Shown piece by piece: positions 14,895 to 63,509 of a stretch of 64,000 nt of DNA; the first letter of the stretch is position 1; every line of letters begins with the position of its first letter. Source of the DNA: Candidatus Latescibacterota bacterium (lineage in GTDB: Bacteria > Latescibacterota > UBA2968 > UBA8231); assembly GCA_965243025.1 (NCBI GenBank), contig CBDETY010000003.1:5638198-5702197 (forward strand), read 5' to 3'. The notes below the pieces were generated by a model. That model ran no database searches and was not told the origin of the DNA. It was given only the letters and a program-made list of their open reading frames with translations. Both the position numbers and the translations under genes were made by a program.

Positions 14895-16091
14895 TCAGTT
14901 GACCATCTGCATCAGGCGCTGGGTCATGGAGCCCTCCTGGGTAAGGGCGTAGATGATGACGTTGACGACGAGCTGCCAATTGCGCCCCGCTTCATGGTCC
15001 CTGAGGTCTCCCAGTCCGGTGCCCCAACCGAAGGTTACGGCGACGAGCCGCCCCTTGACGAAATACCCCATGTTGCGGTGCCAGGAATGGATCCCCTGCT
15101 TGCCGCTGCCCAACACGTAGTAGGCGGATGGGGCCCCGCCCCCGATGTCGAAGTAGGCGGAGTACACCGGGTGGTCGTCGGGAAGCCTCTGTCTCCAGAA
15201 ATCGCGGCCGGCGACCAGCCCCCCGTATTTCTCCAGGGCTTCGAAGGGAACCGGCTCGGCATCGGGGTTGAGCCCGAACACGAACCCGCCCGCCAGTATG
15301 TAACGGGCCAGCGCCTCCAGCTCGCTCTCGTTCACCCGGTAGCCGGGCACGATGATCATCGGTATCTCCATCAGCCGGCTGTCGTCGAACGTAATCGAAC
15401 CCTCGTACTCGGCCTTGATTCCCGTCAGCTCGTTGAGGGCGTCGCGCACCTGGTCGATGCCGTGGGTAAAAAAGCCTCCTGTGCCGTACTCGATCGACTT
15501 GGCCGATTCCACGTGGGCGAAACGCACGAACCCCTTGATGTTCTGCCGGTCCGTCGGACTCTGGACGACCATTGCCTTGTAGCGGCCGGTGTCCAGGCTG
15601 TTGACGTCCATCATCTCCAGCGCCATGTCGATCTTGTTCTCGGGGGCCCGGCTGCTGGCCAGCACTTCCCGGGCGAGGGCGCGGGGTTCCAGGTCGACGC
15701 TCGTGAAGCTCGATGTCCGCGACAGCGCCACCCTCGGGTTGGCTACTTGGCGAATCACCGCGCCTGTGTTGAACGCCGCCGTCGCCTGCACCCGGTCCAT
15801 GCGGGCGGCCGTCAGCCTGACCTCGCGCCTGACCATCTGCCTTCTGGGCTGAGGGATTTTGCGCAACTCCAACGGCTTGGTCAGCCGGGGCTCTCTCATG
15901 ACGAACTTCGTCGTCAGGGGCTTGGGGGCCTTGGCTGCCCGCTCCTTGAACGGATCGATCGCAACCAGGGCCAGATGCAGAAGTGCTGCGAGGCAGAGGC
16001 TGGACCAGAAGACCTTGCGCAGGGGGCCGAGCAGCTCGTCGGGTCTGAAGCCCGACGTGGGGGAAGCGAAACGAGACGTACCGTCCGCCAT
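14895..16091 (-). CDS. DUF4159-like membrane-anchored protein
   Basis: N-terminal TM helix (VFWSSLCLAALLHLALVAI). The C-terminal region IIVPGYRVNESELEALARYILAGGFVFG ... DHPVYSAYFDI resembles DUF4159. Confidence 0.55.
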   Translation of the reverse strand: MADGTSRFASPTSGFRPDELLGPLRKVFWSSLCLAALLHLALVAIDPFKERAAKAPKPLTTKFVMREPRLTKPLELRKIPQPRRQMVRREVRLTAARMDRVQATAAFNTGAVIRQVANPRVALSRTSSFTSVDLEPRALAREVLASSRAPENKIDMALEMMDVNSLDTGRYKAMVVQSPTDRQNIKGFVRFAHVESAKSIEYGTGGFFTHGIDQVRDALNELTGIKAEYEGSITFDDSRLMEIPMIIVPGYRVNESELEALARYILAGGFVFGLNPDAEPVPFEALEKYGGLVAGRDFWRQRLPDDHPVYSAYFDIGGGAPSAYYVLGSGKQGIHSWHRNMGYFVKGRLVAVTFGWGTGLGDLRDHEAGRNWQLVVNVIIYALTQEGSMTQRLMQMVN

Positions 16092-16232
16092 GGTTCACCT
16101 CCTGAGGTGAATTCTGTGGAGGGTTCCCGGCACCCATCACACCCGGAGTTCGCTCACAATATACATCACCGGGTGGTGAAGAAATGTAAAGGAAGCAAAG
16201 TTTTTTTTGGGAGGGCCGTCTATTACTCGGTT

Positions 16233-17186
16233 CTATTCCAACAGGCTCGCCTTGATTCGTCCCCATGCCTTGTCTTCCACAACGGATTTGTCATCGCCCG
16301 GCAGCAGAACACCATCCACCCATGTATGAGCATCGCTTCCCAGGTCACTGCGTTTTCCCGTGAAGTTCCCAAGGATGTACGCATCGTGAATGAATTCGTC
16401 TTCATCGATATCCGTCACCTGAATGCTGAATCCAACAATCTTGTTTGCCCGCAGGTCTGAAACCACACTGCTTTCGGCCTCCGCAATGATGAGCTTGTCG
16501 AAAGGGGTGATATAGAACTCGATGATCCATACGGTTGGATTCATTCCATTGGCAGATCCTCCTGCGCTCGAGAACGGAGCATTGCTCCACCAGTCGCCGA
16601 ACTCGCCCATGATTTGCAGGTCGATGTTCGGGGTCTCCGGACTGATTGGGATAGCTTCATAGAATTGAGCTGCTTGGTCCTGAATTCCACAGTCTTCGAT
16701 ACTTAAACACGATTCCCCGGGATCGAATCCGGGAGAACCGTCGTGGTCTCCATCGATCATGAAATTGACGTGATCCTGAAAAAAGAAATTACCAGGATAG
16801 GCGAAATTCCCGTCCCAGCTTCGAAACAAATCGTCGGCGATAATGGCGGCTGAATAGAAACGGTCGGTTGAATCGCTCCAGCCCAGCCAGATACGGAAAT
16901 CAAGGTCGGACGGACCGTATTTGGTGCTCTGAGGATTCGAGGTCACATCGGGAAAGAAGGAGAAATCCAGTGCGGTGAGGGATGGTTCGAAAAACAACCC
17001 TTCCCATTCATCGACTTGGCCGTCGATTACATCAGTTGGAGAGATCTGGGCTTCGAGCGCGTCGCCGAAGCCCGGGGTCGCGAGGCACGCCTGTCCTTCG
17101 CCGAGGGCGTCACCGAAGACGGCATCTGAGTTTTGAAAGAGACCGTTCCAAACAGTGTAGTGAGAAAGCTTGCCTTTTAACTTCAT
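16233..17186 (-). CDS. CBM9/DOMON-like protein, paralog A (no obvious signal peptide)
   Basis: 317-aa ORF, paralogous to 58150-59103 (shared PSDLDFRIWLGW, DGDHDGS, EFYITPFD, IVGF..V.D.DE, C-terminal W.RIKAS.L). G+C is markedly lower than the flanks. Confidence 0.7.
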   Translation of the reverse strand: MKLKGKLSHYTVWNGLFQNSDAVFGDALGEGQACLATPGFGDALEAQISPTDVIDGQVDEWEGLFFEPSLTALDFSFFPDVTSNPQSTKYGPSDLDFRIWLGWSDSTDRFYSAAIIADDLFRSWDGNFAYPGNFFFQDHVNFMIDGDHDGSPGFDPGESCLSIEDCGIQDQAAQFYEAIPISPETPNIDLQIMGEFGDWWSNAPFSSAGGSANGMNPTVWIIEFYITPFDKLIIAEAESSVVSDLRANKIVGFSIQVTDIDEDEFIHDAYILGNFTGKRSDLGSDAHTWVDGVLLPGDDKSVVEDKAWGRIKASLLE

Positions 17187-45694: not shown

Positions 45695-46594
45695 TTACCT
45701 CGTCAGCGTTCCGGCGAAATGGTCGAGGAAGCGCGGCGCATCCACCGCCACGCACACGTCGGTGTTTGGCTCGGCATCCCTTGCCGGGGCCGGAACCGTC
45801 GCCCCGTTGAGGTGCCCGGACCTCGTCTCCACCTCGATCCGCATGGGCCGCGTCTCGCAGAAGGTGGGATCGAACACCATGGCGACGGCCAGCGGATCGT
45901 GCAGTAACGGCCGGCGCTGCGGGTTGTCACCCCGCCAGAGCTGGATCAGCTCGAAGCAGAGCCGGTTGATCGGGCGGTCCACGGCCCCGACCGCCCGCAC
46001 CTGGTCCAAGCTCATGCGGCACTGCTCGGTCACGTCCAGGCCGACCATGGTGATCGGAACCCCGGTCCCGAACACGATGCGCGTTGCCTCCGGATCGCAC
46101 AGGGCGTTCCACTCCGGGCGGGGGCGGTTGGTGCACCCGCCCATCAGGCAGATCCTGGCTCTGTCGGCCATGCGGGGTTCTATAGTGAAGGCGGCCGCGA
46201 TGTTCGTCAGCGGGCCGATCGGCACCAGGGTGACGTCGCCGGCGCCGCTCATGACGGTGTCGACGATGAAGTCGACCGCGCCCCGGGACGCGGGCCTGGT
46301 CGATGCCGGGTATCGCTCGAGCGCCTGCATCTGGTGCGGCTCATGTGCCGCGATCGCCGCCCGGCCCTCGGTCACCGAATCGAGCAGGGGCTTCCCCAGG
46401 CCGGCGTAAACCCCGACGTCGCTCCGCCCCAGCGCCTCCAGCACGCAGCAGGCGAGCTCGGCCCGGCGGACGGTGTCGCGGAACACGGTGGTGACCCCGA
46501 GCAACTCGATCTCCCCGCACATGAGTGCGTACGCGAGCGCCAGCGCGTCGTCGATGTCGTCCCCGATGTCGGTGTCCAGGATGATCTTGTGCAC
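45695..46594 (-). CDS. inosine/uridine-preferring nucleoside hydrolase family protein
   Basis: N-terminal fingerprint ILDTDIGDDIDDALALAYAL. Confidence 0.85.
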   Translation of the reverse strand: MHKIILDTDIGDDIDDALALAYALMCGEIELLGVTTVFRDTVRRAELACCVLEALGRSDVGVYAGLGKPLLDSVTEGRAAIAAHEPHQMQALERYPASTRPASRGAVDFIVDTVMSGAGDVTLVPIGPLTNIAAAFTIEPRMADRARICLMGGCTNRPRPEWNALCDPEATRIVFGTGVPITMVGLDVTEQCRMSLDQVRAVGAVDRPINRLCFELIQLWRGDNPQRRPLLHDPLAVAMVFDPTFCETRPMRIEVETRSGHLNGATVPAPARDAEPNTDVCVAVDAPRFLDHFAGTLTR

Positions 46595-46723
46595 TGCGCG
46601 CTCCTCTCCGGCGGGCAGACCGCCAAGGGTGGATCCATGTGCAGGTAAAAATAGAGCCGGCCGGGGAACAGACCCTGCCTGGACAGCCTCGAACGGGGCC
46701 GGATCGGTCAGGGTCGATGATTC

Positions 46724-47548
46724 TCAGGGGACCGCCACCGGCCGGGCCTTCCCCGATGTCGGGTCAGGCCGGACATCGGCCGCCTCCAGGGCGACGCGGA
46801 AACCGTAGTCGGTCAGCTGCCGGTCGGGCAGGATCGCCGAGCGGTGGGCGCAGCGGGTGACCTTGACGGCGTGCCGCCAGGAGCCGCCCCGGGAGGCGCG
46901 CCGCTGGCCGGCGGCCGGGCCGGGAGGGTTGCGGTCCGGGGAGACGGCGTAGTATCCCGGGTCGTACCAGTCCGAGCACCACTCGTGGACGAGGTCGCCC
47001 ATGTTGTGCAGGCCGTAGCCGTTTGGGGGGTCCCGGCCGACGCGGTCGGGGCGCTCAACGTCGTCGCCCCGGTAGCGGGGGTCCATCCAGTCGGGAGGGC
47101 CGTCGCCCCAGGGGTATTCCCGCTCCTCCATCCCGCCCCGGGAGGCCTTCTCGCGTTCGGCCTCGGTGGGGAGGCGGAAGGCGGCGTCCAGCTCGGCGGA
47201 GAGCCAGGCGCAGTAGGCGACGGCGTCGAACCAGCTCACCGCCACGGCCGGCTGCTCCGGGTCGGCGAAGCGCTCGTCCCCCCAGGAGCGCGGCGGCGGG
47301 CGGCCGGCCGCGTCGAGGAAGGACTGGTACTCGAGGCGGGTCACGGGCCGCAGGGCCAGGGCGAAGGCGTCGACCCAGACGCCGTGGGCGGGCGCCTCGT
47401 TGGCGCGGCCCCGGTCGCTGCCCATGCGGAACCGGCCCTCCGGGATCAGGGCCACCTCCGGCACCGCCGGGGGAACTGCGGCGGCGGAGTCCACCGCCCG
47501 GCTCATGAGCGGGCCGGAACTTCCCGGGACTCGACGATGCGCAGCCAT
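46724..47548 (-). CDS. formylglycine-generating-enzyme (FGE-sulfatase/SUMF1) domain protein, no signal peptide
   Basis: RMGSD...EAPAHGVWVDAF...PVT..EY..F, YGLHNMGDLVHEWCSDWY and RGGSWRH. The start is uncertain: ATG 47548 or 47506; the ORF is open to 47689. Confidence 0.75.
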   Translation of the reverse strand: MAAHRRVPGSSGPLMSRAVDSAAAVPPAVPEVALIPEGRFRMGSDRGRANEAPAHGVWVDAFALALRPVTRLEYQSFLDAAGRPPPRSWGDERFADPEQPAVAVSWFDAVAYCAWLSAELDAAFRLPTEAEREKASRGGMEEREYPWGDGPPDWMDPRYRGDDVERPDRVGRDPPNGYGLHNMGDLVHEWCSDWYDPGYYAVSPDRNPPGPAAGQRRASRGGSWRHAVKVTRCAHRSAILPDRQLTDYGFRVALEAADVRPDPTSGKARPVAVP

Positions 47549-47677
47549 GGAAACAATAAGGCACCATTCCGGACTCCCGGCCAAGGCGCAGAGCGCGGCG
47601 CCGAGGCCGACCTGCTCGTCATGCCCGGGGGGAAGCTCTACGGCTGGCGACGGGTGCCTGCGGATTCCCAAAACAGA

Positions 47678-47708
47678 TTTGACATACAACCATTTCGTCG
47701 TACGTTTG
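47678..47708 (+). promoter_or_regulatory. candidate promoter of the ATPase/STAND/sigma-PheS operon
   Basis: This is the only AT-rich patch locally. TTTG-N19-TAcgTTTG fits the Bacteroidetes-type -33/-7 consensus, and TTGACA (47679-47684)-N16-TACGTT is an alternative sigma-70-like reading. It lies about 45 nt upstream of ATG 47751. Confidence 0.4.
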
Positions 47709-47750
47709 GTTTATAAAACAATTCTGCTTTACAACCGAAATGGTGTGAAA

Positions 47751-48980
47751 ATGGAAAACGTCCCCGAGTTCTACACGGGCGCTCCCGTCGACCCGGTTGA
47801 CCTGCGTTTCCGCGAGACGTTTCTGGCGGAGCTGTGGCAGACGCTGCGCACCGGGCATGTGGTCCTCACGGCTCCTCGGCGAACCGGCAAGACCAGCGTC
47901 ATGGATTACCTGCGCGACCATCCCGAGAACGGATTCTCTGTGGTGTCCATCAGCGTTCAGGACCTGACCCATCCCGCCGACTTCTTCCAGGTGCTGCTCG
48001 ATGGATTCCACGATGCGCATCCGGATTTCGTGCGCGGCCGGCTTGCCGCGGGTTGGGAACTCGTCAGCGGTGTGGTCGGAAAGGTCGACGAAATCGGTGT
48101 CGGCGGCTTCAAGCTCGGGCTGCGCGAGAGCGCCCCCGACTGGCGCACGAACTGGCGCCAGTACGGCGACACGTTTCTCGCCCATGCCCGCAAAACCGAT
48201 ACCCGGATTCTTTTCATCATCGACGAGTTTCCCGACATGCTGCTCAGCCTGTCCCGGGAAGATGAAGGGTTGCCGCGCGAGTTCCTCGCCTGGTTTCGCA
48301 CCCAGCGACAGAATCCGGCGCCGGCAAGGGATTCGGTTCGCTGGCTGATCGGCGGCTCGGTCAATCTGGGCGGCACCCTCGACGCCCTCGGGCTGGTCCA
48401 CCTCATCAACGACCTCGAAGACGTTTCCCTGCCGCCCCTCACCGATGGCGACATCGAAGCCTTCGTGAAGGAGATGCTGGGCGGCCGGGGCGTCCCCTTC
48501 GACGACGACGTTACGCAACGGCTCATCGCTCGCCTGGGCAGTCCCATCCCCTTCTTCATGCAGATGACGACCCAGAATCTCTACCGGTTGTGGAAACGGG
48601 AGCAACGCAGGATCACCGGGGCGGATGTCGATGCCGTGTTCGACGCGATGGTCGTCGGTTCCGCGGCACGCACCCGACTGCAGCACTTCCATTCGAGGAT
48701 CAACCAGTACTATGCGGATCCGAAACGCTCGATTGCCCATGCCTTGCTGGGACAGATCAGCGTGAGTGAATCAGGGCTTAGGCGCGCAACCCTGTTGCAT
48801 GAGACGGAACGCCTGCTGGAAGGTCTCGGCGTCACGCTCCCGGTGCATGAACGCAGGCAGATGTTCAACCAGCTGCTGCTCGACCTGGAGAACGATTTCT
48901 ACATCGTCGAGGTCGAGGAGCCGTTCTACGACTTTGCCAGCGGCGTCCTGAAATCGTGGTGGAGGAAATACCATGCCTGA
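47751..48980 (+). CDS. P-loop ATPase (archaeal-ATPase/PF01637-like AAA+)
   Basis: Walker A VLTAPRRTGKTS and Walker B ILFIIDEFPD. The helical C-terminal half is consistent with a lid plus winged-helix. The stop overlaps the next gene start by 8 nt. Confidence 0.8.
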   Translation: MENVPEFYTGAPVDPVDLRFRETFLAELWQTLRTGHVVLTAPRRTGKTSVMDYLRDHPENGFSVVSISVQDLTHPADFFQVLLDGFHDAHPDFVRGRLAAGWELVSGVVGKVDEIGVGGFKLGLRESAPDWRTNWRQYGDTFLAHARKTDTRILFIIDEFPDMLLSLSREDEGLPREFLAWFRTQRQNPAPARDSVRWLIGGSVNLGGTLDALGLVHLINDLEDVSLPPLTDGDIEAFVKEMLGGRGVPFDDDVTQRLIARLGSPIPFFMQMTTQNLYRLWKREQRRITGADVDAVFDAMVVGSAARTRLQHFHSRINQYYADPKRSIAHALLGQISVSESGLRRATLLHETERLLEGLGVTLPVHERRQMFNQLLLDLENDFYIVEVEEPFYDFASGVLKSWWRKYHA

Positions 48981-51576
48981 GCCGACCCTAAATTCGAAAA
49001 TCGGTCTGTACCGATCCGGCGTAACCAGCCCGGAGCGCCTGCACCGCACCAGCGTCGCGCGCCAACACCTGCTCGACAACGCCATCGAATCCCTGCGCGG
49101 TTCGGTGGGCAGGAAGTCGAAGAACCACCTGCTGTTTATCGGCCCGCGCGGGATCGGCAAGACCCACCTGCTCTCGTGCATCGAAGACGCCGTTCAGTCC
49201 GATGAAACCCTGAGCCCATGTGTCGTAATCGTCCGGTTCCCGGAGGAATCGAACCGGACGCTGTCCTTCGCCGATTTCCTTATCGGCATGTGCGAAATAT
49301 TGAAGGAGGTCCTCGAAGAGGAACCGCTGTGGGCGAAGCTGTTTGCCGCAGTGCAGACCGAAGAAGACGACGCCAGGGTTGCCGACAGGCTGGTGCCGGC
49401 GATCCGCGAAGAGAACCGCAGGCGCGGCCGAACCATGCTGGTCATGCTCGAAAACCTGGGCGAGATCCTGGACCAGCAAATTCGACGCAAGAACCACGTC
49501 GCCGCCCTGCGCCAGTTCTTCATGGGCGACAACGGCTGCCTGCTGCTGGCCACCGCGCCGAGGCATTTCGACGGGATCACCGACGTGAGCCAGCCGTTCT
49601 ACGACTTCTTCGACACTCAGATCCTGGATAACCTGAGCTTCGGGGAAACGGTCGAGGTCATCCGCCTGAACCTCGAATGGGAAGAACGCACCGACATTCT
49701 CGAAACGCTGGACGAAATGCGCCCGCGGCTGCAAGCGCTTTATCGCATGACGGGGGGAAATCCACGTTTGACGATGATGCTCTACGAGCTGATCGCCCAC
49801 GAGTCGGTCATCAGCGTGCAGGATCAGTTCCTCCAGCTGCTCGACCGGATCTCGCCGTTCTACCAGGGACGATTGAACGATCTGCCGCCGGGCCAGCGCG
49901 CCCTGCTGGAATGTCTGGCGAGCATGCGCGACCAGGAGAAGACTCCGGCCGCCATTGCCGCGCGAATGCGCATGAGCCAGCAGGAGACGTCGTCGCTTCT
50001 CAAGCGTCTCACCAGTGCCCACTACCTGCGCGCAGACCGGCACCCGCGGGACAAGCGTTCGCGCCTCTACACGATACGCGAGGGTTTCTTCGACATCTGG
50101 CTCGCGATGAGCCTCTCCCGCGGGGCACGCAGGCGCATGCCGTTCCTGCTCGACTTCTTCAGTCTCTTCTACCCGAGCATCGCGGCCCGCGAGGAAAAGC
50201 GCCGTCAGTTGCGCGCGAAGCTTCTCGAAGAGGGCAGCGATGACGCGGAAAGGTCCCTCGACTACCTGAGTGAAGTCGGCGGCGAAGGGGAGCGGGCGAC
50301 CGCGAAGTTCGACATGGCCAGAACTTATGCCCGCCGTGGAGATTTCGATCAGACGGTGAGCTACGTGCGGGAAGCCGCGCCCCTGGCCGGAGACGGAGTG
50401 AGCCGGTCGATTGTCCGCATTGCCGACAGCACTCCGTCCGCTCCCGACTATCTCTCGGAAATCGAGGAGATGATCGAGTGCTGGGAGCTGCACCGCAGTG
50501 GCGAGCTCGAGGAGTTTGCCTACCGGCTGGCGGAGATGGGGGAAGGACTGACCCTCCGCACGTTCTCCGAGACCAGACTGGCGTTTCTGCGAGATACCCT
50601 GGAAAGCGTGGGGGATGCCGAGGATCGGATCGCGCAGCGCCTGGGAATTGCGGCGGTTCTGATGGATCTCGCACGCTGGGAGGAGTGCGAGGAGCAGCAG
50701 CGCCAAGCGCTTGCCGAGGCGACGGCACTCGCCGATTCCGACCTTGTCGCAAGGGCGTCGAACGAGCTGGGGCAGCTGCTGCAGCGCACAAACCGACTCG
50801 GAGAGGCGGAACCGCTGATGCGTCGTGCACTGGAGATCTTCCTGGCCGCCTACGGCGAGCAGCACCCGGAGGTGGCAACTTGCTCGAGTAACCTGGCTTC
50901 TCTGCTGCATGACACCAACCGGACCGAGGAAGCCGAACCGCTGATGCGGCGTGCCCTGGAGACCGCGGAGGCCTCCCTCGGCGAGCAGCACTCGACCGTG
51001 GCGATCTACCTGAACAACCTGGCGATTCTGCTGAAGGACACCAACCGGATCGGGGAAGCCGAACCGCTGATGCGGCGTGCGCTGGAGATCGACGTGGAGG
51101 CCCTCGGTGAGCAGCACCCAACCGTGGGGAACCGCTTGAACAACCTGGCGAATCTGCTGCTGAACACCAACCGAATCGAGGAAGCCGAACCCTTGATGCG
51201 GCGTGCGCTTGAGATCGACGAGGCCGCCTTCGGGGAACAGCACCCGAGGGTGGCGACTTGCTTGAACAACCTGGCGACTCTGCTGCATGGTAGCGGCCGG
51301 ATCGAGGAAGCCGAGCCGCTGATGCGTCGTGCGTTGGAGATCCGCGAGAGGGCTTTCGGTCAGCGGCATCCAGACGTAGCGACACACATGAACAACCTGG
51401 CGACCCTGCTGCTGGACACTCACCGGATCGAGGAAGCCGAGCCCTTGATGCGGCGATCCCTGGAAATCCTGGACACCTTCCGTCGCCAAACCGGGCACGA
51501 GCACCCGCACTTCCAAGACGCGAACGAGAGCTACCAGACCCTTAAGCGAGCCATGGGATCCAACGAGCCGGACTGA
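48973..51576 (+). CDS. STAND/ORC-Cdc6-like NTPase with winged-helix and C-terminal TPR array
   Basis: GGAGGA RBS. Walker A LLFIGPRGIGKTHLL and a Walker B-like MLVMLENLGE. wHTH TPAAIAARMRMSQQETSSLLKRLTSAHYLR. At least 6 tandem 42-aa TPR units NNLA.LL.DTNRIEEAEPLMRRALEI.E...GEQHP.VA. Confidence 0.85.
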   Translation: MPEPTLNSKIGLYRSGVTSPERLHRTSVARQHLLDNAIESLRGSVGRKSKNHLLFIGPRGIGKTHLLSCIEDAVQSDETLSPCVVIVRFPEESNRTLSFADFLIGMCEILKEVLEEEPLWAKLFAAVQTEEDDARVADRLVPAIREENRRRGRTMLVMLENLGEILDQQIRRKNHVAALRQFFMGDNGCLLLATAPRHFDGITDVSQPFYDFFDTQILDNLSFGETVEVIRLNLEWEERTDILETLDEMRPRLQALYRMTGGNPRLTMMLYELIAHESVISVQDQFLQLLDRISPFYQGRLNDLPPGQRALLECLASMRDQEKTPAAIAARMRMSQQETSSLLKRLTSAHYLRADRHPRDKRSRLYTIREGFFDIWLAMSLSRGARRRMPFLLDFFSLFYPSIAAREEKRRQLRAKLLEEGSDDAERSLDYLSEVGGEGERATAKFDMARTYARRGDFDQTVSYVREAAPLAGDGVSRSIVRIADSTPSAPDYLSEIEEMIECWELHRSGELEEFAYRLAEMGEGLTLRTFSETRLAFLRDTLESVGDAEDRIAQRLGIAAVLMDLARWEECEEQQRQALAEATALADSDLVARASNELGQLLQRTNRLGEAEPLMRRALEIFLAAYGEQHPEVATCSSNLASLLHDTNRTEEAEPLMRRALETAEASLGEQHSTVAIYLNNLAILLKDTNRIGEAEPLMRRALEIDVEALGEQHPTVGNRLNNLANLLLNTNRIEEAEPLMRRALEIDEAAFGEQHPRVATCLNNLATLLHGSGRIEEAEPLMRRALEIRERAFGQRHPDVATHMNNLATLLLDTHRIEEAEPLMRRSLEILDTFRRQTGHEHPHFQDANESYQTLKRAMGSNEPD
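50761..51516 (+). repeat. six tandem 126-nt (42-aa) near-identical TPR coding repeats
   Basis: Units start at 50761, 50887, 51013, 51139, 51265 and 51391. Long identical nucleotide runs recur (for example gaagccgaaccgctgatgcggcgtgc). Confidence 0.9.
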
Positions 51577-51624
51577 TCGGCATGCGATTGGCCGTCACAA
51601 TCTGTCGATTGTGGTGTCCTGTAA

Positions 51625-52869
51625 GTGGGTACTCCAATGGTCTGCAACTACGAGGAACTGGCTGCTCTGACCAGGGCGGCTCGAGCAGGGGATCTGCGCG
51701 CCTACGGCCGAATCGTCGAGTTGACCCGCAACTCGGTGGAGGCGGCGGCGCGGGTAATCATTCACAACCCCGAAGATGCGGAGGATATCGCGCAGGAGAC
51801 CTATGTGCGCGCCTTCGGTCAGCTCGCAAACCTGCAGGACGCCGCCTCGCTGCCGGCGTGGCTCCAGCGCATCGCCCGGAACCTGGCGCTGAACCGCAGG
51901 CGGGCCAGCCGCTGGTCATTTGTCAGCGACTTCGATGTGTCGCAGATCGCCCAGCCGGATGCCGATGCCGATGAACTCGGTCCGGCGCTCGCCCGGGCCC
52001 TTGTCGGACTGGGCGGCGAGGATCGCCAGCTGTGCGAGAGATACTACCACGGCGGTTGGACCACGGCGCGTCTGGCCGGCGAGATGAAGATCAGCGAGGT
52101 CGCTGTCCGCAAACGTCTGCAACGCGTCCGCGAACGCCTGCGAAAGGGAATCGCCATGACCGGAATGGATCTGCCCGAGCGCATCGTCGAACTCCTGTCA
52201 AAGCCGAATCTGACCGCCCTGCCGGAAAACCCGGTGGGAGCTGTCTGGGAGGCATTCAAGCGTCAGTACGACGGTTTTTCAGAGGTCGAGCTCGAGGAGA
52301 GAATCGACCCTGAAAAGGTCAGGGAGATCCTCGCAAATGCCGGCAATGGGCCGCTCGAAGAGTACCTGACAGCGGCGAGCCGCCAACAGTGGCTGCGGCG
52401 TGCGCTCACGGTGCCGATGGTGATGGAAGCAGCGGGCAGGGAGGCCCCGGTGCAGCTGATCGCCACGGGGAAGACCTACCGGATAGACAACGGGGAGGAG
52501 AGCAGTACCAAACTGCACGCCTTTCATCAGGCCGAGGTGCTGTGGGTCGGGGAAGGTTTGAGCGAGTGGCAGTTGATGGCGCCGTTCAGCGAGTTCATCC
52601 GGGAACTGAACCCGGAAATGGAGCTGCGCATCCATCATTTCGACTACTCGCTCCACTCGGAGCGGGGATGGAAGATTGCGGTTCAACTGCGGGGAATGGA
52701 ATGGAGTTCGATCGCGGGGTTGGGTCGGATGAAAGCCAGTCTCCTCGAGGCCCTGGGGTACGACTCGGACCGGTTGACGGCCGTCGCGCTCGGAGTGGGT
52801 CTGGAACGCCTGGCCATGATGCAGTACGGCATCGATGACATCCGCCGGATGGAGGCCGAGCGCGTATAG
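51625..52869 (+). CDS. ECF-type sigma-70 factor fused to a PheS-like class II aminoacyl-tRNA-synthetase catalytic-core domain
   Basis: N-terminus: sigma region 2 (DAEDIAQETYVRAF ... AWLQRIARNLALNRRR) and region 4 (EDRQLCERYYHGGWTTARLAGEMKISEVAVRKRLQRVRERL). C-terminus (about aa 195-414): WLRRALTVPMV, ATGKTYRIDNGEESSTKLHAFHQAEVL, AVALGVGLERLAMMQYGIDDIR. These parallel E. coli PheS LLRTQTSGVQ, APGRVYRND..THTPMFHQMEGL and [22 protein letters not shown] (from memory). Start is GTG 51625 or ATG 51637. Confidence 0.75.
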   Translation: MGTPMVCNYEELAALTRAARAGDLRAYGRIVELTRNSVEAAARVIIHNPEDAEDIAQETYVRAFGQLANLQDAASLPAWLQRIARNLALNRRRASRWSFVSDFDVSQIAQPDADADELGPALARALVGLGGEDRQLCERYYHGGWTTARLAGEMKISEVAVRKRLQRVRERLRKGIAMTGMDLPERIVELLSKPNLTALPENPVGAVWEAFKRQYDGFSEVELEERIDPEKVREILANAGNGPLEEYLTAASRQQWLRRALTVPMVMEAAGREAPVQLIATGKTYRIDNGEESSTKLHAFHQAEVLWVGEGLSEWQLMAPFSEFIRELNPEMELRIHHFDYSLHSERGWKIAVQLRGMEWSSIAGLGRMKASLLEALGYDSDRLTAVALGVGLERLAMMQYGIDDIRRMEAERV

Positions 52870-52883
52870 GAGCTTCGCTCCCT

Positions 52884-52975: not shown

Positions 52976-53536
52976 TCACTCGGCGACGCACCGTCCATCC
53001 CTGTACGCCAGAACCGGTTCGTTGGGCACTGAGCAGTCCGAAAAATACTCGTAGCGCTCGTTCATATCGGCTTCAAAGGCGTTATACGCTGTCAGCCGCT
53101 CGGCCAGCGCCGTCGAGTCGGTGGACGAGGCGGAGTAAACAACGTACTCCCAGGGACCGCCGCAGGGCTTGGAGCCCAGGCCCACGTACCGACAGTCCTC
53201 AATCGACGCGCCCGCAGCGTCCCCGACGAGGGCGTCGATCTCCCCTCGCATCTCCGCCAGCTGTGCACGGTCGCCTTCCTCGGTCCGCTGGTCGCCGTTG
53301 TTGTCTCCGACGACAGGATCCGAGTCCGTCGTGTCGGCGACCCCGGTGTTCGTCCCCGGTATCCGGGACTCCGCCAAACCGGCGACAGGGGCGCTGAAGG
53401 TCAGGCTGCTGGATATGCGTTTCCCGGCAGCCCCGGAATTCCCTGCCGGCTGGCCGGGTGAAACAGGATCGTCTTCACCGCATGCGCCCAGCGCCAGGAC
53501 GCAAGCCAGGAAGTACAAAGCGGATTCTGATTTCAT
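52976..53536 (-). CDS. lipoprotein, function unknown
   Basis: Signal peptide plus lipobox MKSESALYFLACVLALGAC. The mature protein is acidic. Confidence 0.7.
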   Translation of the reverse strand: MKSESALYFLACVLALGACGEDDPVSPGQPAGNSGAAGKRISSSLTFSAPVAGLAESRIPGTNTGVADTTDSDPVVGDNNGDQRTEEGDRAQLAEMRGEIDALVGDAAGASIEDCRYVGLGSKPCGGPWEYVVYSASSTDSTALAERLTAYNAFEADMNERYEYFSDCSVPNEPVLAYRDGRCVAE

Positions 53537-61754: not shown

Positions 61755-61924
61755 CTTATGCTGAGGGTGCCCCGTACCCTCAGACGTGATCGGTCACGTT
61801 TTCCAAGGACCTTGATATGCGCCGCCCCCGCATGCGATTTGGCCCACGGTCAGCAGTGCGTTCCGACATATCTTGGAGGAGGCGGGGGCGAAGATCCCCT
61901 TCATCCCCTCACGGGAGGACTTTC

Positions 61925-62934
61925 ATGGACCGCCTTCTTTTTTTGGGGCCCTTGCGATGGGCCTGAGTGCCTGCAGGGAACCTATTGACACGGTCCCTCG
62001 TGCCTTGATGCTCGAACAGCATGGTTTGGTCGAGGAGGCGAAAGGCATGTTTATAGAGATCGTCCACAGCGACGCCCATGATTCAAGCAAGGCGACATCC
62101 CTCTACCACCTCGGCTTAATCGCCTTCAATGAGAAGCGCCTTCAGGCTGCCCTTAATACGTGGAACAGTCTAACAGATCTATATCCCTCGTCTACCGAAG
62201 CCGAGCTGGTCTCCGAGCAGATGGACTACTTGGTTCGGGAAATCGCCCACCTGTCCAGCGACCTCGTCAGCGATGTCACGGCAAGGTTGTATTTTGAAGC
62301 ATGCCGAATTCTGGTCAGGCGACATTAAAATGCCCACCTGGTCAATCGACACGAGCAATTTGGACCCAATCAATTTGGCTTGCGACTGGTATGACAAGGC
62401 TATCAGGGAGTTTCCCCAAACCGACGTGGCGAGGAAAGCACACATCGAGAAATTCAGAACGATCCTGGGGAAAGAGGGGATCAAACTCTCGTTCGGCCGG
62501 TACATCGACCCTCTACTGACAGCATACCATGAATTCGAGAAGGCGTTTCCCGACGATGACAATTTGCCGGCCATGAAATACCAGATTGCCCAGGTATACT
62601 GGAGGCAAGGAATTGGCCACCTACGCCTGTCGGAAGTCCAAAAAACCATTGCGGAAGGGAGGGAATACGATGCGAAACGTGAAAAAGAATTCGCTGACCA
62701 CCCCTCTTTTCTGGCCATTCAAAATGGTCGGAAGATTCCCTGGAAAGAGCCAAGGAGTACGCAGCCAAAGCTAGTAAGAGCCTGAACGACGCAAGAAGGT
62801 CGGAAAAGACATTCAAACAACATATGATGAAAGCCAAGGAGAGGTTGAACTTGATTATCGAAGGGGGAGATTCAAATTCTTTCTACACGAGACTCGCCAC
62901 AGCTCGCCTGAACGAAATCCTTTCGCAGGAATAA
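61925..62934 (+). pseudogene. TPR/BamD-like lipoprotein gene interrupted by three frameshifts (or sequence errors)
   Basis: ATG 61925 followed by a T7 run (61938-61944). With one more T it would read MDRLLFFGALAMGLSAC, a signal peptide plus lipobox. The frame changes again near 62300 (ARLYFE | HAEFWSGD) and near 62735 (FLAIQNGRK | LERAKEYAAKASKSLNDARR...LSQE stop 62934). G+C is lower than the contig average. Confidence 0.5.
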
Positions 62935-63509
62935 CCAACTCCCTGCTTGAACGACAGTGTATCCGGGGTACAAGTCGCATGGCTATTCTCCTCCTTGACG
63001 TTTATGCGATGGAACCACGAATACCGACTTGTTTGTATGGAAACTCGAGATGGATTTCCTTCAGGTCAGTCCTGCTGTGTTGGTGTGGCGTGCTCGATCA
63101 GCTTGATAGTCAGGTGCAGGAAAGGTTCCGAACATCAACAGCACCAGGATCACCGGCATCAAGCATAGGGTCGGTATCACCGCACATCAGCCATCACCCA
63201 CTTCGTTACCGGCCAAGACAGCGCCAGGATGTTCCAAGCGAGGCCGCGTTGCTTTAGGTAGATGAATGAGGGTCGTTTGAAGATCCTTCGGAAGAACTCG
63301 TAGAACCCTTTTTGGATTTCTCTCGCCCCGTATCCGGTTCAAACCGGGACCTGAGGGACTGTTGATTGCACGCGCACCCGTACGGCGGAACCCGAATGCG
63401 CGTCGAGGATACAGGTTGGTCGACACCCGGGTAGACCCCTACGGAGTCCTTGCATTCCCGGAACTTCCGCTGCACCTTGGGGACCGACCTTAGCAAGCAA
63501 AGACCATGG

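Follow-up and report, generated by a model that had tools for sequence, protein, structure and literature searches.

An ECF sigma factor with a PheS-like domain and an adjoining ATPase–TPR cassette in a Latescibacterota genome: probably two independent units

Gene layout of the locus

Three co-directional genes, here called g1, g2 and g3, follow each other on the plus strand of a 64-kb stretch of DNA from a Candidatus Latescibacterota genome (contig CBDETY010000003.1). "The window" refers to this whole stretch, and labels of the type L001 refer to homologous loci from other genomes or assemblies. A sequence-only reading had joined the three genes into one tight sensor/response system. Our analysis makes it likely that two independent units abut here at approximately 51582/51583, namely a horizontally spread cassette and a self-contained gene for an extracytoplasmic function (ECF) sigma factor fused to a PheS-like domain, a putative sensor acting in cis. 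Unit A (47669–51582) is the g1–g2 cassette and unit B (51594–52869) is g3 with its promoter. The features are as follows.

47669–47750, plus strand: AT-rich leader of the cassette, containing TTGACATACAAC, GTCGTA and ACAACAATTCTG.TTTACAACC
47751–48980, plus strand: g1, 409 aa, AAA+ ATPase with Walker A PRRTGKTS and Walker B IIDEFPD
48973–51576, plus strand: g2, 867 aa, AAA+/STAND-like NTPase (residues 37–165), winged helix (303–363) and TPR_10/TPR_12 array (approximately 551–841)
50776–51464, plus strand: tandem DNA repeat inside g2, with a unit of 126 nt, or 42 aa, equal to one TPR unit
51594–51620, plus strand: ECF-type promoter of g3 inside the g2–g3 gap, GTCACAATCTGTCGATTGTGGTGTCCT, with −35 box GTCACA, a 14-nt spacer and −10 box GTGTC
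51625–52869, plus strand: g3, 414 aa, ECF sigma factor with a PheS-like half
51625–52176, plus strand: N-terminal half of g3, ECF sigma core with sigma2 (residues 32–97) and sigma4 (124–174)
52177–52869, plus strand: C-terminal half of g3, degenerate PheRS-alpha catalytic core (residues approximately 185–414)

The open reading frames (ORFs) lay where the sequence-only reading had placed them. Its 8-nt overlap between g1 and g2 (48973–48980) was confirmed, and the gap of about 50 nt that it gave between g2 and g3 measured 48 nt. The Walker motifs that it listed (PRRTGKTS, IIDEFPD and GPRGIGKTHLL) were all present. In the source gene call for an identical g3 protein, translation starts at the ATG at 51637 and yields 410 aa; this is probably the true start because of the position of the promoter. 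Downstream of g3, the expected convergent lipoprotein gene was found as an ORF of 186 aa (52976–53536) with a signal peptide and a lipobox-like LALGAC.

The sigma/PheS-like protein and its family

Profile searches agreed with the description of g3 as an ECF sigma factor joined to a PheS-like class II aminoacyl-tRNA synthetase (aaRS) core. In Pfam, the protein matched Sigma70_r2 (6.5e-12; score 45.5, cutoff 24), Sigma70_r4 just below the cutoff (4.5e-5; 23.3, cutoff 24.1) and, at residues 251–410, tRNA-synt_2d (2.7e-27). In NCBIfam, TIGR02937 (sigma70-ECF) was matched with 62.9 bits, above its cutoff of 42.9. The AlphaFold2 (AF2) model, built with 20 diverse homologues, had a mean predicted local distance difference test score (pLDDT) of 79 and a predicted template modelling score (pTM) of 0.53, with low-confidence linkers. 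Its confident parts were the sigma2 helices (9–96), sigma4 (118–176) and an alpha/beta domain (195–404). With sigma2 and sigma4 and, in the AF2 model, no sigma3, g3 belongs to the ECF (group 4) sigma-70 factors. A Foldseek search against the PDB returned PheRS alpha first (TM score 0.69–0.71, root mean square deviation approximately 3.3 Å over approximately 220 residues) and SepRS next, and the best PDB sequence match was PheS of M. tuberculosis (4.5e-16). The C-terminal half thereby belongs to the class II aaRS fold; of the arginines of motifs 2 and 3, R286 was invariant and R395 nearly so.

An assignment of g3 as PheS was rejected. The pheS profile (TIGR00468) gave 88.2 bits against a cutoff of 237.45, with only profile positions 150–311 matched, and both the defining motifs and the N-terminal coiled coil were gone. 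The PheS-related ligase SrmL (NF051887) was rejected as well, since the score of 60.1 bits was far under the curated cutoff of 300. A consensus of 39 fusions was compared with 18 genuine PheS proteins (TIGR00468/PF01409), with which g3 shares the fold of the catalytic core. The fusions have kept the LR..T segment, the G..R of motif 2 (GKxYR), FHQxE (FHQAE in g3) and the GxG(L)ER of motif 3, so that motif 2 G..R, FHQxE and motif 3 GxGxER are common to both groups. Unlike PheS, they have lost HP (replaced by NP), the NF..LN.P..HPAR...DTF segment, the His and Ser of THTS, the D.aTH of the motif 2 loop, FPFTEPS and the C-terminal tail. In the place of the N-terminal tRNA-binding coiled coil of PheS, g3 has the fused sigma core. 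In an alignment of 20 family members, 29 positions of the PheS-like half were invariant, including R286, F300, H301, Q302 and E304. From structures of T. thermophilus PheRS, we take the retained residues to be those that contact the adenylate and the alpha-amino group, and the aromatic pair holding the phenyl ring in place to be among the lost ones. Judged by its sequence, the PheS-like domain is a dedicated sigma-factor extension and no working PheRS, and g3 is not expected to charge tRNA-Phe.

A word-index search with g3 gave 598 matches, and the best 120 were mostly 410–425 aa long with PF04542 and PF01409. A genome scan yielded the g3 loci of 78 other genomes, each with up to 10 kb of flank on either side. 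The metagenome-assembled genomes (MAGs) among them were labelled Acidobacteriota (mostly Vicinamibacterales), Planctomycetota, Myxococcota, Gemmatimonadota and Latescibacterota, and one cultured strain, Paludibaculum fermentans, was among the carriers. The ratio of nonsynonymous to synonymous substitution rates (dN/dS) was 0.17–0.39 in both halves of g3, with 0.17–0.32 in the PheS-like half. Comparison of the homologues shows the fusion to be an old, widespread family under purifying selection.

When the PheS-like domain alone was searched against 1.84 billion representative proteins, 963 matches were obtained (E ≤ 0.001). Whole-domain matches were mostly approximately 410–430 aa long with the domain at approximately 190–415, as sigma fusions predict. 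Ten matches of atypical length were examined: five carried sigma domains, one (P0249) starts at the end of sigma4, and four (P0242, P0247, P0251 and P0258), with tRNA-synt_2d alone in Pfam, resembled fragments beginning at the linker or in sigma4. The PheS-like domain thus appears to be fused to an ECF sigma factor essentially always. One protein (P0318, 596 aa) comprised sigma, PheS-like and GNAT acetyltransferase domains, and the last of these is a hint that at least one lineage performs acyl or aminoacyl transfer. Together with P0279, P0296 and P0317, this protein represents a second, more PheS-like subfamily, in which HPV and GRVFR are kept and a LWxxPYV tail is conserved, so the superfamily of fusions extends beyond the clade to which the window gene belongs.

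All-versus-all clustering of the ORFs within 6 kb of g3 in the 78 loci revealed no conserved partner or anti-sigma gene. The commonest neighbour family, a MacB/FtsX permease with PadR, was present in at most 17 of the 78 loci, and its position and strand varied. Recurrent neighbours were the abundant, paralogous MacB/FtsX and PadR families, while others (DNA ligase etc.) were kept within subclades only. Many loci had a convergent gene after g3. With an extension of approximately 230 aa in 20 of 20 aligned members and no cognate anti-sigma gene, g3 qualifies as an extension ECF. In L014 (7824–13267) and approximately eight similar loci, labelled Acidobacteriota/Vicinamibacterales, the sigma/PheS-like gene was flanked on one side by a 5'-3' exonuclease gene and on the other by genes for an ATP-dependent DNA ligase and then DJ-1/PfpI. 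This context may be local synteny only, or may hint at a DNA-damage-related regulon.

The closest named relatives (L001–L004; 86–88% at the amino acid level) came from MAGs labelled Gemmatimonadetes and Latescibacterota. Their nucleotide similarity to the window (88%) covered 51583–52880 only, that is, g3 with 42 bp upstream, and no flanking DNA aligned. The synonymous divergence (dS) of g3 was approximately 0.37. This pattern would arise if g3 itself had moved horizontally or if gene order had been thoroughly reshuffled.

The upstream regions of the homologues shared the motif GTCACA-N14-GTGTC(C/T)T with an invariant spacer. In 1.475 Mb of sequence (loci and window, both strands), the exact form TCACA-N14-GTGTC occurred 51 times, against approximately 2.8 occurrences expected, and 48 of these sites were directly upstream of a sigma/PheS-like gene; the three non-cognate sites in 1.47 Mb correspond to chance level. 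With up to one mismatch, the motif was present in 70 of 77 loci, compared with 0 of 73 controls even at up to two mismatches. The g3 promoter was the sole site in the window. A bipartite promoter before a sigma factor's own gene is expected for an autoregulated ECF sigma factor (PMC7826278), and g3 is probably autoregulated from its own promoter. The promoter spacer also contained a perfect 7-bp inverted repeat (CACAATC-N4-GATTGTG, 51597–51614) that overlaps the −35 box. It was kept, perfectly or with one mismatch, in L001–L004, L079 and L080, and not in more distant homologues; it could be a clade-specific operator or a hairpin.

The g1–g2 cassette and its adjacency to g3

The proposed P-loop ATPase identity of g1 was supported by a Pfam match to AAA_22 (residues 34–188; 3.5e-8), the sole Pfam family reported. 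The AF2 model of g1 had a pLDDT of 67, and its best Foldseek matches were archaeal Orc1/Cdc6, ORC and RFC (E 2e-5), with TM scores of just 0.25–0.28. The fold is predicted to be ORC/Cdc6-like with a C-terminal helical or winged-helix part. No NCBIfam family was found for g1, and a PDB sequence search gave chance-level matches only; a QatB-like identity was rejected (E 0.97 in this search). For g2, Pfam agreed with an ORC/STAND-like NTPase, a MarR-like winged helix and a TPR array. The NTPase matches at residues 37–165 were weak (AAA_22; AAA_16, 0.0011; ORC-CDC6-like, 6e-4; NACHT, 0.011), the last three lying below their cutoffs, whereas the array matched TPR_12 (4.6e-75) and TPR_10. The winged helix matched MarR_2 at 303–363 (1.1e-7). 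In a search of PDB sequences, the N-terminal part of g2 matched synthetic TPR proteins and weak P-loop proteins, and nothing better. The two proteins were rejected as paralogues, their BLASTP similarity being at the level of the P-loop alone. No effector domain was recognisable in g1 or g2 with Pfam. PADLOC-DB 2.0 had no match for g1 or g3, and for g2 just a sub-threshold one to Csa3 (E 0.005). Tandem Repeats Finder resolved the TPR array of g2 into a period of 126 with 5.1 copies and 77% matches, and homologues of g2 differed in length in 42-aa steps (699, 741, 825, 867, 909 and 950 aa). We read these length classes as differences in the number of repeat units, a feature shared with NLR-type sensors.

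Close copies of the cassette were widespread. Searches returned at least 120 clusters for g1 at 78–94% identity and 985 matches for the N-terminal part of g2, the best 120 of which had 84–98% identity; across many multi-Mb contigs, the cassette proteins were 78–98% identical. Three cassette proteins came from MAGs labelled Gammaproteobacteria, Immundisolibacterales and Gemmatimonadetes, and g1–g2 copies in MAGs labelled as other phyla had 79–88% protein identity. Outside this lineage, we inspected four loci, of which two belong to a MAG labelled Gammaproteobacteria, one to a MAG labelled Immundisolibacterales and one to a 7.4-Mb contig. All four (L081, L083 and L084 among them) had g1 and g2 paired with the same 8-nt overlap in unrelated flanks, and in none was a sigma gene found beside the pair. 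The g1 of this genome and the copies from MAGs labelled Gammaproteobacteria differed by a dS of just 0.25–0.63. Low dS and unrelated flanks together indicate that the cassette has spread horizontally and recently, with phylum assignments taken from MAG labels.

The AT-rich patch before g1 that the sequence-only reading had pointed out proved real and was kept with the cassette in other genomes. It aligned with the copies in the MAGs labelled Gammaproteobacteria and Immundisolibacterales and on the 7.4-Mb contig, while the DNA further upstream was unrelated. Three TACAAC-like words (ACATACAAC, ACAACAATTC and TTTACAACC) and a TTGACA box are found in this leader, which is probably the promoter or operator of the cassette and may be bound by the winged helices of g1 or g2. 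At the other end, conservation of the cassette stopped directly after the stop codon of g2, at approximately 51582. The copy on the 7.4-Mb contig (L084, 3343–5911) adjoined a DDE transposase, a weak SIR2_2 match and a HEPN/nucleotidyltransferase pair, and was the sole inspected cassette context resembling a mobile or defence island.

One close relative, L079, had no cassette. Its g3 was 95% identical, and its DNA was 93–97% identical on both sides of a missing block (blastn), with breaks at 47702/47703 and 51564/51565:

47703–51564, no strand: block of 3.86 kb with g1 and g2, absent from L079, where approximately 29 bp are in its place

Synteny was otherwise kept, with an FGE-sulfatase gene upstream and the lipoprotein and ABC transporter genes downstream. 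In L079, the beginning of the leader is still present, as are the last codons of g2, directly before the g3 promoter, which indicates that the cassette was deleted in L079 and not inserted in the window genome. The g2/g3 adjacency was kept in three assemblies from different samples, namely the window, L080 (ERZ21830300) and L085 (ERZ21862620). In L080 (6113–7341) and L085 (1–721), g1 was split by frameshifts over two or three frames and g2 and g3 were intact; the split could be real pseudogenisation or long-read indel errors. Since L079 lacks the cassette and g1 is frameshifted in L080 and L085, the cassette is dispensable in this lineage and possibly decaying. The window and L079 differed again upstream of the FGE-sulfatase gene (window 45695–47689, L079 1610–8952), where the window has a nucleoside hydrolase gene and L079 approximately 7 kb with a response regulator, PD40 proteins and others. 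The whole neighbourhood is therefore a variable region.

Neither g1 nor g2 was present within 10 kb of g3 in any of the 78 other loci, and a tblastn search of these loci (±10 kb) with g1 and residues 1–540 of g2 gave 0 matches. The sequence-only reading had itself named such a lack of co-occurrence beforehand as refuting its three-gene system, and that system did not hold up. We favour two units because of this lack of co-occurrence, the cassette pairs without g3, the deletion in L079 and the promoter of g3 itself. The adjacency of the units appears, on comparative grounds, to be a lineage-specific accident and no system.

In the single-system alternative, g1, g2 and g3 would be one operon that encodes a single signalling or defence system, in which the TPR NTPases detect a trigger and work by way of, or together with, the sigma factor. 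Tight spacing (the 8-nt overlap and the 48-nt gap), the lack of a terminator-like site between g2 and g3, and the adjacency kept in three independent assemblies of close relatives would suit it. We regard it as very improbable nonetheless, given that the genes did not co-occur in the 78 g3 loci or the four g1–g2 loci, that L079 is syntenic with the cassette deleted and g3 intact, that g1 is frameshifted in L080 and L085, that g3 has its own conserved promoter in the gap, and that PADLOC gave no significant match. The locus is a caution in this respect: tight spacing alone suggested an operon, and the comparative data show accidental adjacency. That the g2/g3 junction is a chimeric assembly joint, as the meeting of two independently conserved units within a few bases (approximately 51582/51583) might suggest and as the sequence-only reading had allowed for, has next to no probability, since the same junction recurs in L080 and L085, assemblies from different samples, and L079 retains the last g2 codons directly before the g3 promoter.

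Several points weigh against the reading of two units with a sigma factor sensing in cis. The adjacency of cassette and g3 persists in the window, L080 and L085, and no terminator-like site was found between g2 and g3. Read-through from the cassette into g3 is possible in this genome, and is not needed for g3 expression. No further copy of the promoter was found in the window with two mismatches allowed, or above chance level in the loci, and hence no regulon member in either. Ligand-gating of the PheS-like domain is something that we infer only, and the inter-domain geometry in the AF2 model is uncertain at this pTM. On the side of the cassette, the contexts outside this lineage number four, the model of g1 is of moderate confidence, and no effector or known defence family was recognised.

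Elsewhere in the window, two patches of low GC content stood out (16001–17000, 0.52; 62001–63000, 0.51; approximately 0.65 elsewhere), and the ORFs in them (16233–17186, minus strand; 61873–62785) had no Pfam match. Rfam at the gathering threshold and ARAGORN gave no matches over the whole window.

Possible functions and significance

In known groups of extension ECF sigma factors, the extension contacts the sigma core and modulates its activity via ligand or protein interaction (PMC8999054, PMC7826278). We group g3 functionally with them because it has no anti-sigma gene, no conserved partner and a conserved fused domain. It shares with these groups a sigma2–sigma4 core, a fused C-terminal domain of more than 50 aa, the absence of a neighbouring anti-sigma gene and, upstream of its own gene, a bipartite promoter that is conserved and specific to the group. 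It differs in the nature of the extension, a class II aaRS (PheS-type) core of approximately 230 aa. A PheS-type extension is not among the domains named in the main texts of PMC8999054 and PMC7826278. The sequence-only reading knew of no described counterpart to its system; for the sigma/PheS-like fusion, our search of the full-text literature and ECF reviews likewise found no description, although an earlier listing in supplementary tables is possible. The fusion is apparently undescribed.

We hypothesize that g3 is a one-component ECF sigma factor in which the PheS-like extension would act in cis as the regulator, like the extensions of ECF41, ECF42 and ECF238. By this analogy, gating of the sigma factor by its aaRS-like fold is a reasonable inference. 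The extension would most likely bind ATP and an amino-acid-like ligand other than Phe, or form an adenylate, because the residues for the adenylate and the amino group are retained and the phenyl pocket is lost. Ligand binding would alter the engagement of RNA polymerase by sigma2 and sigma4, and the active sigma factor would amplify its own transcription and switch on a regulon elsewhere in the genome.

A more specific and tentative proposal, possible at best, is that the family forms a new class of one-component sigma factors in which a repurposed aaRS core senses amino-acid/ATP status, uncharged tRNA or PheRS beta and converts this into promoter selection. Regulatory aaRS paralogues are represented by HisZ and the HisRS-like domain of GCN2. 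From general knowledge, these follow the same logic, with a non-charging synthetase core serving as a sensor of amino acids or uncharged tRNA with a regulatory output. They differ in being HisRS-derived and in their outputs, a subunit of ATP-PRT and a kinase, respectively; the output of g3 would be a sigma factor in the same polypeptide.

Alternatively, the PheS-like domain could be no passive ligand sensor but an active adenylate-forming or aminoacyl-transfer enzyme that modifies the sigma factor or another target, or else a module that docks to PheT or homodimerises and in this way links the sigma factor to the translation apparatus. In favour of this alternative are the invariance or near-invariance of the adenylate-site residues (motif 2 Arg, FHQxE and motif 3 Arg), the obligate dimerisation of class II cores, the pairing of PheS with PheT, and the GNAT acyltransferase domain that follows the PheS-like domain in P0318. 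We consider this alternative unlikely, as HPAR/DTF, THTS, the TH of the motif 2 loop and FPFTEPS are gone, the tRNA-binding coiled coil is missing and no conserved partner gene lies nearby.

Unit A would consist of two translationally coupled ORC/Cdc6-like AAA+ proteins, which we interpret, with low confidence, as an NLR-like ligand sensor pair. Binding of a protein would fall to the TPR array, and the output would arise from ATP-dependent assembly of g1 and g2. As no enzymatic effector domain is detectable, this output may be DNA-directed through the winged helices, or still hidden. STAND/NLR-like NTPases with TPR arrays (Avs-type, MalT-type) likewise combine a P-loop NTPase, a winged helix and a long TPR_10/TPR_12 array, and in g2, too, the TPR units are highly similar and vary in number between homologues. 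In contrast to these systems, g1 and g2 have no recognisable effector and no significant PADLOC match, the NACHT and AAA_16 matches are below their cutoffs, and the partner of g2 is a second, ORC/Cdc6-like AAA+ protein.

The main rival to the NLR-like sensor pair is an ordinary pair of ATP-dependent transcription regulators in the style of MalT/LAL, acting via winged helices on their own leader or on host genes. The MarR_2 winged helix of g2, the predicted ORC/Cdc6-like fold of g1 with a C-terminal beta-hairpin, the TACAAC words repeated in the conserved leader, the lack of an effector domain and of a significant PADLOC match, and the mostly metabolic flanking genes all argue for such regulators. 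We nevertheless give this rival a small chance, in view of the near-identical copies with low dS in MAGs labelled as different phyla, the variation in repeat copy number as in NLR-type sensors, the ready loss or decay of the cassette in this lineage, and the one copy that has SIR2-like, HEPN/MNT and transposase genes as neighbours. A mobile accessory or conflict element would account for these features better than a MalT-style regulator. The cassette, highly conserved, present in MAGs labelled as different phyla and with NLR-like repeat variation, is a candidate new conflict or regulatory module.

Extension ECF sigma factors are the sigma-factor equivalent of one-component systems, and few extension types have a known signal. 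Soil Acidobacteriota and several other poorly studied phyla, about whose regulation little is known, commonly carry the sigma/PheS-like family, and it can be tested now through the promoter motif GTCACA-N14-GTGTC, the retained and lost active-site residues and the cultured host Paludibaculum fermentans. A tRNA-synthetase-derived extension would let a single polypeptide couple the initiation of transcription to the status of amino acids, ATP or translation, and, if it is a sensor, it would be a bacterial counterpart of the GCN2/HisZ logic.

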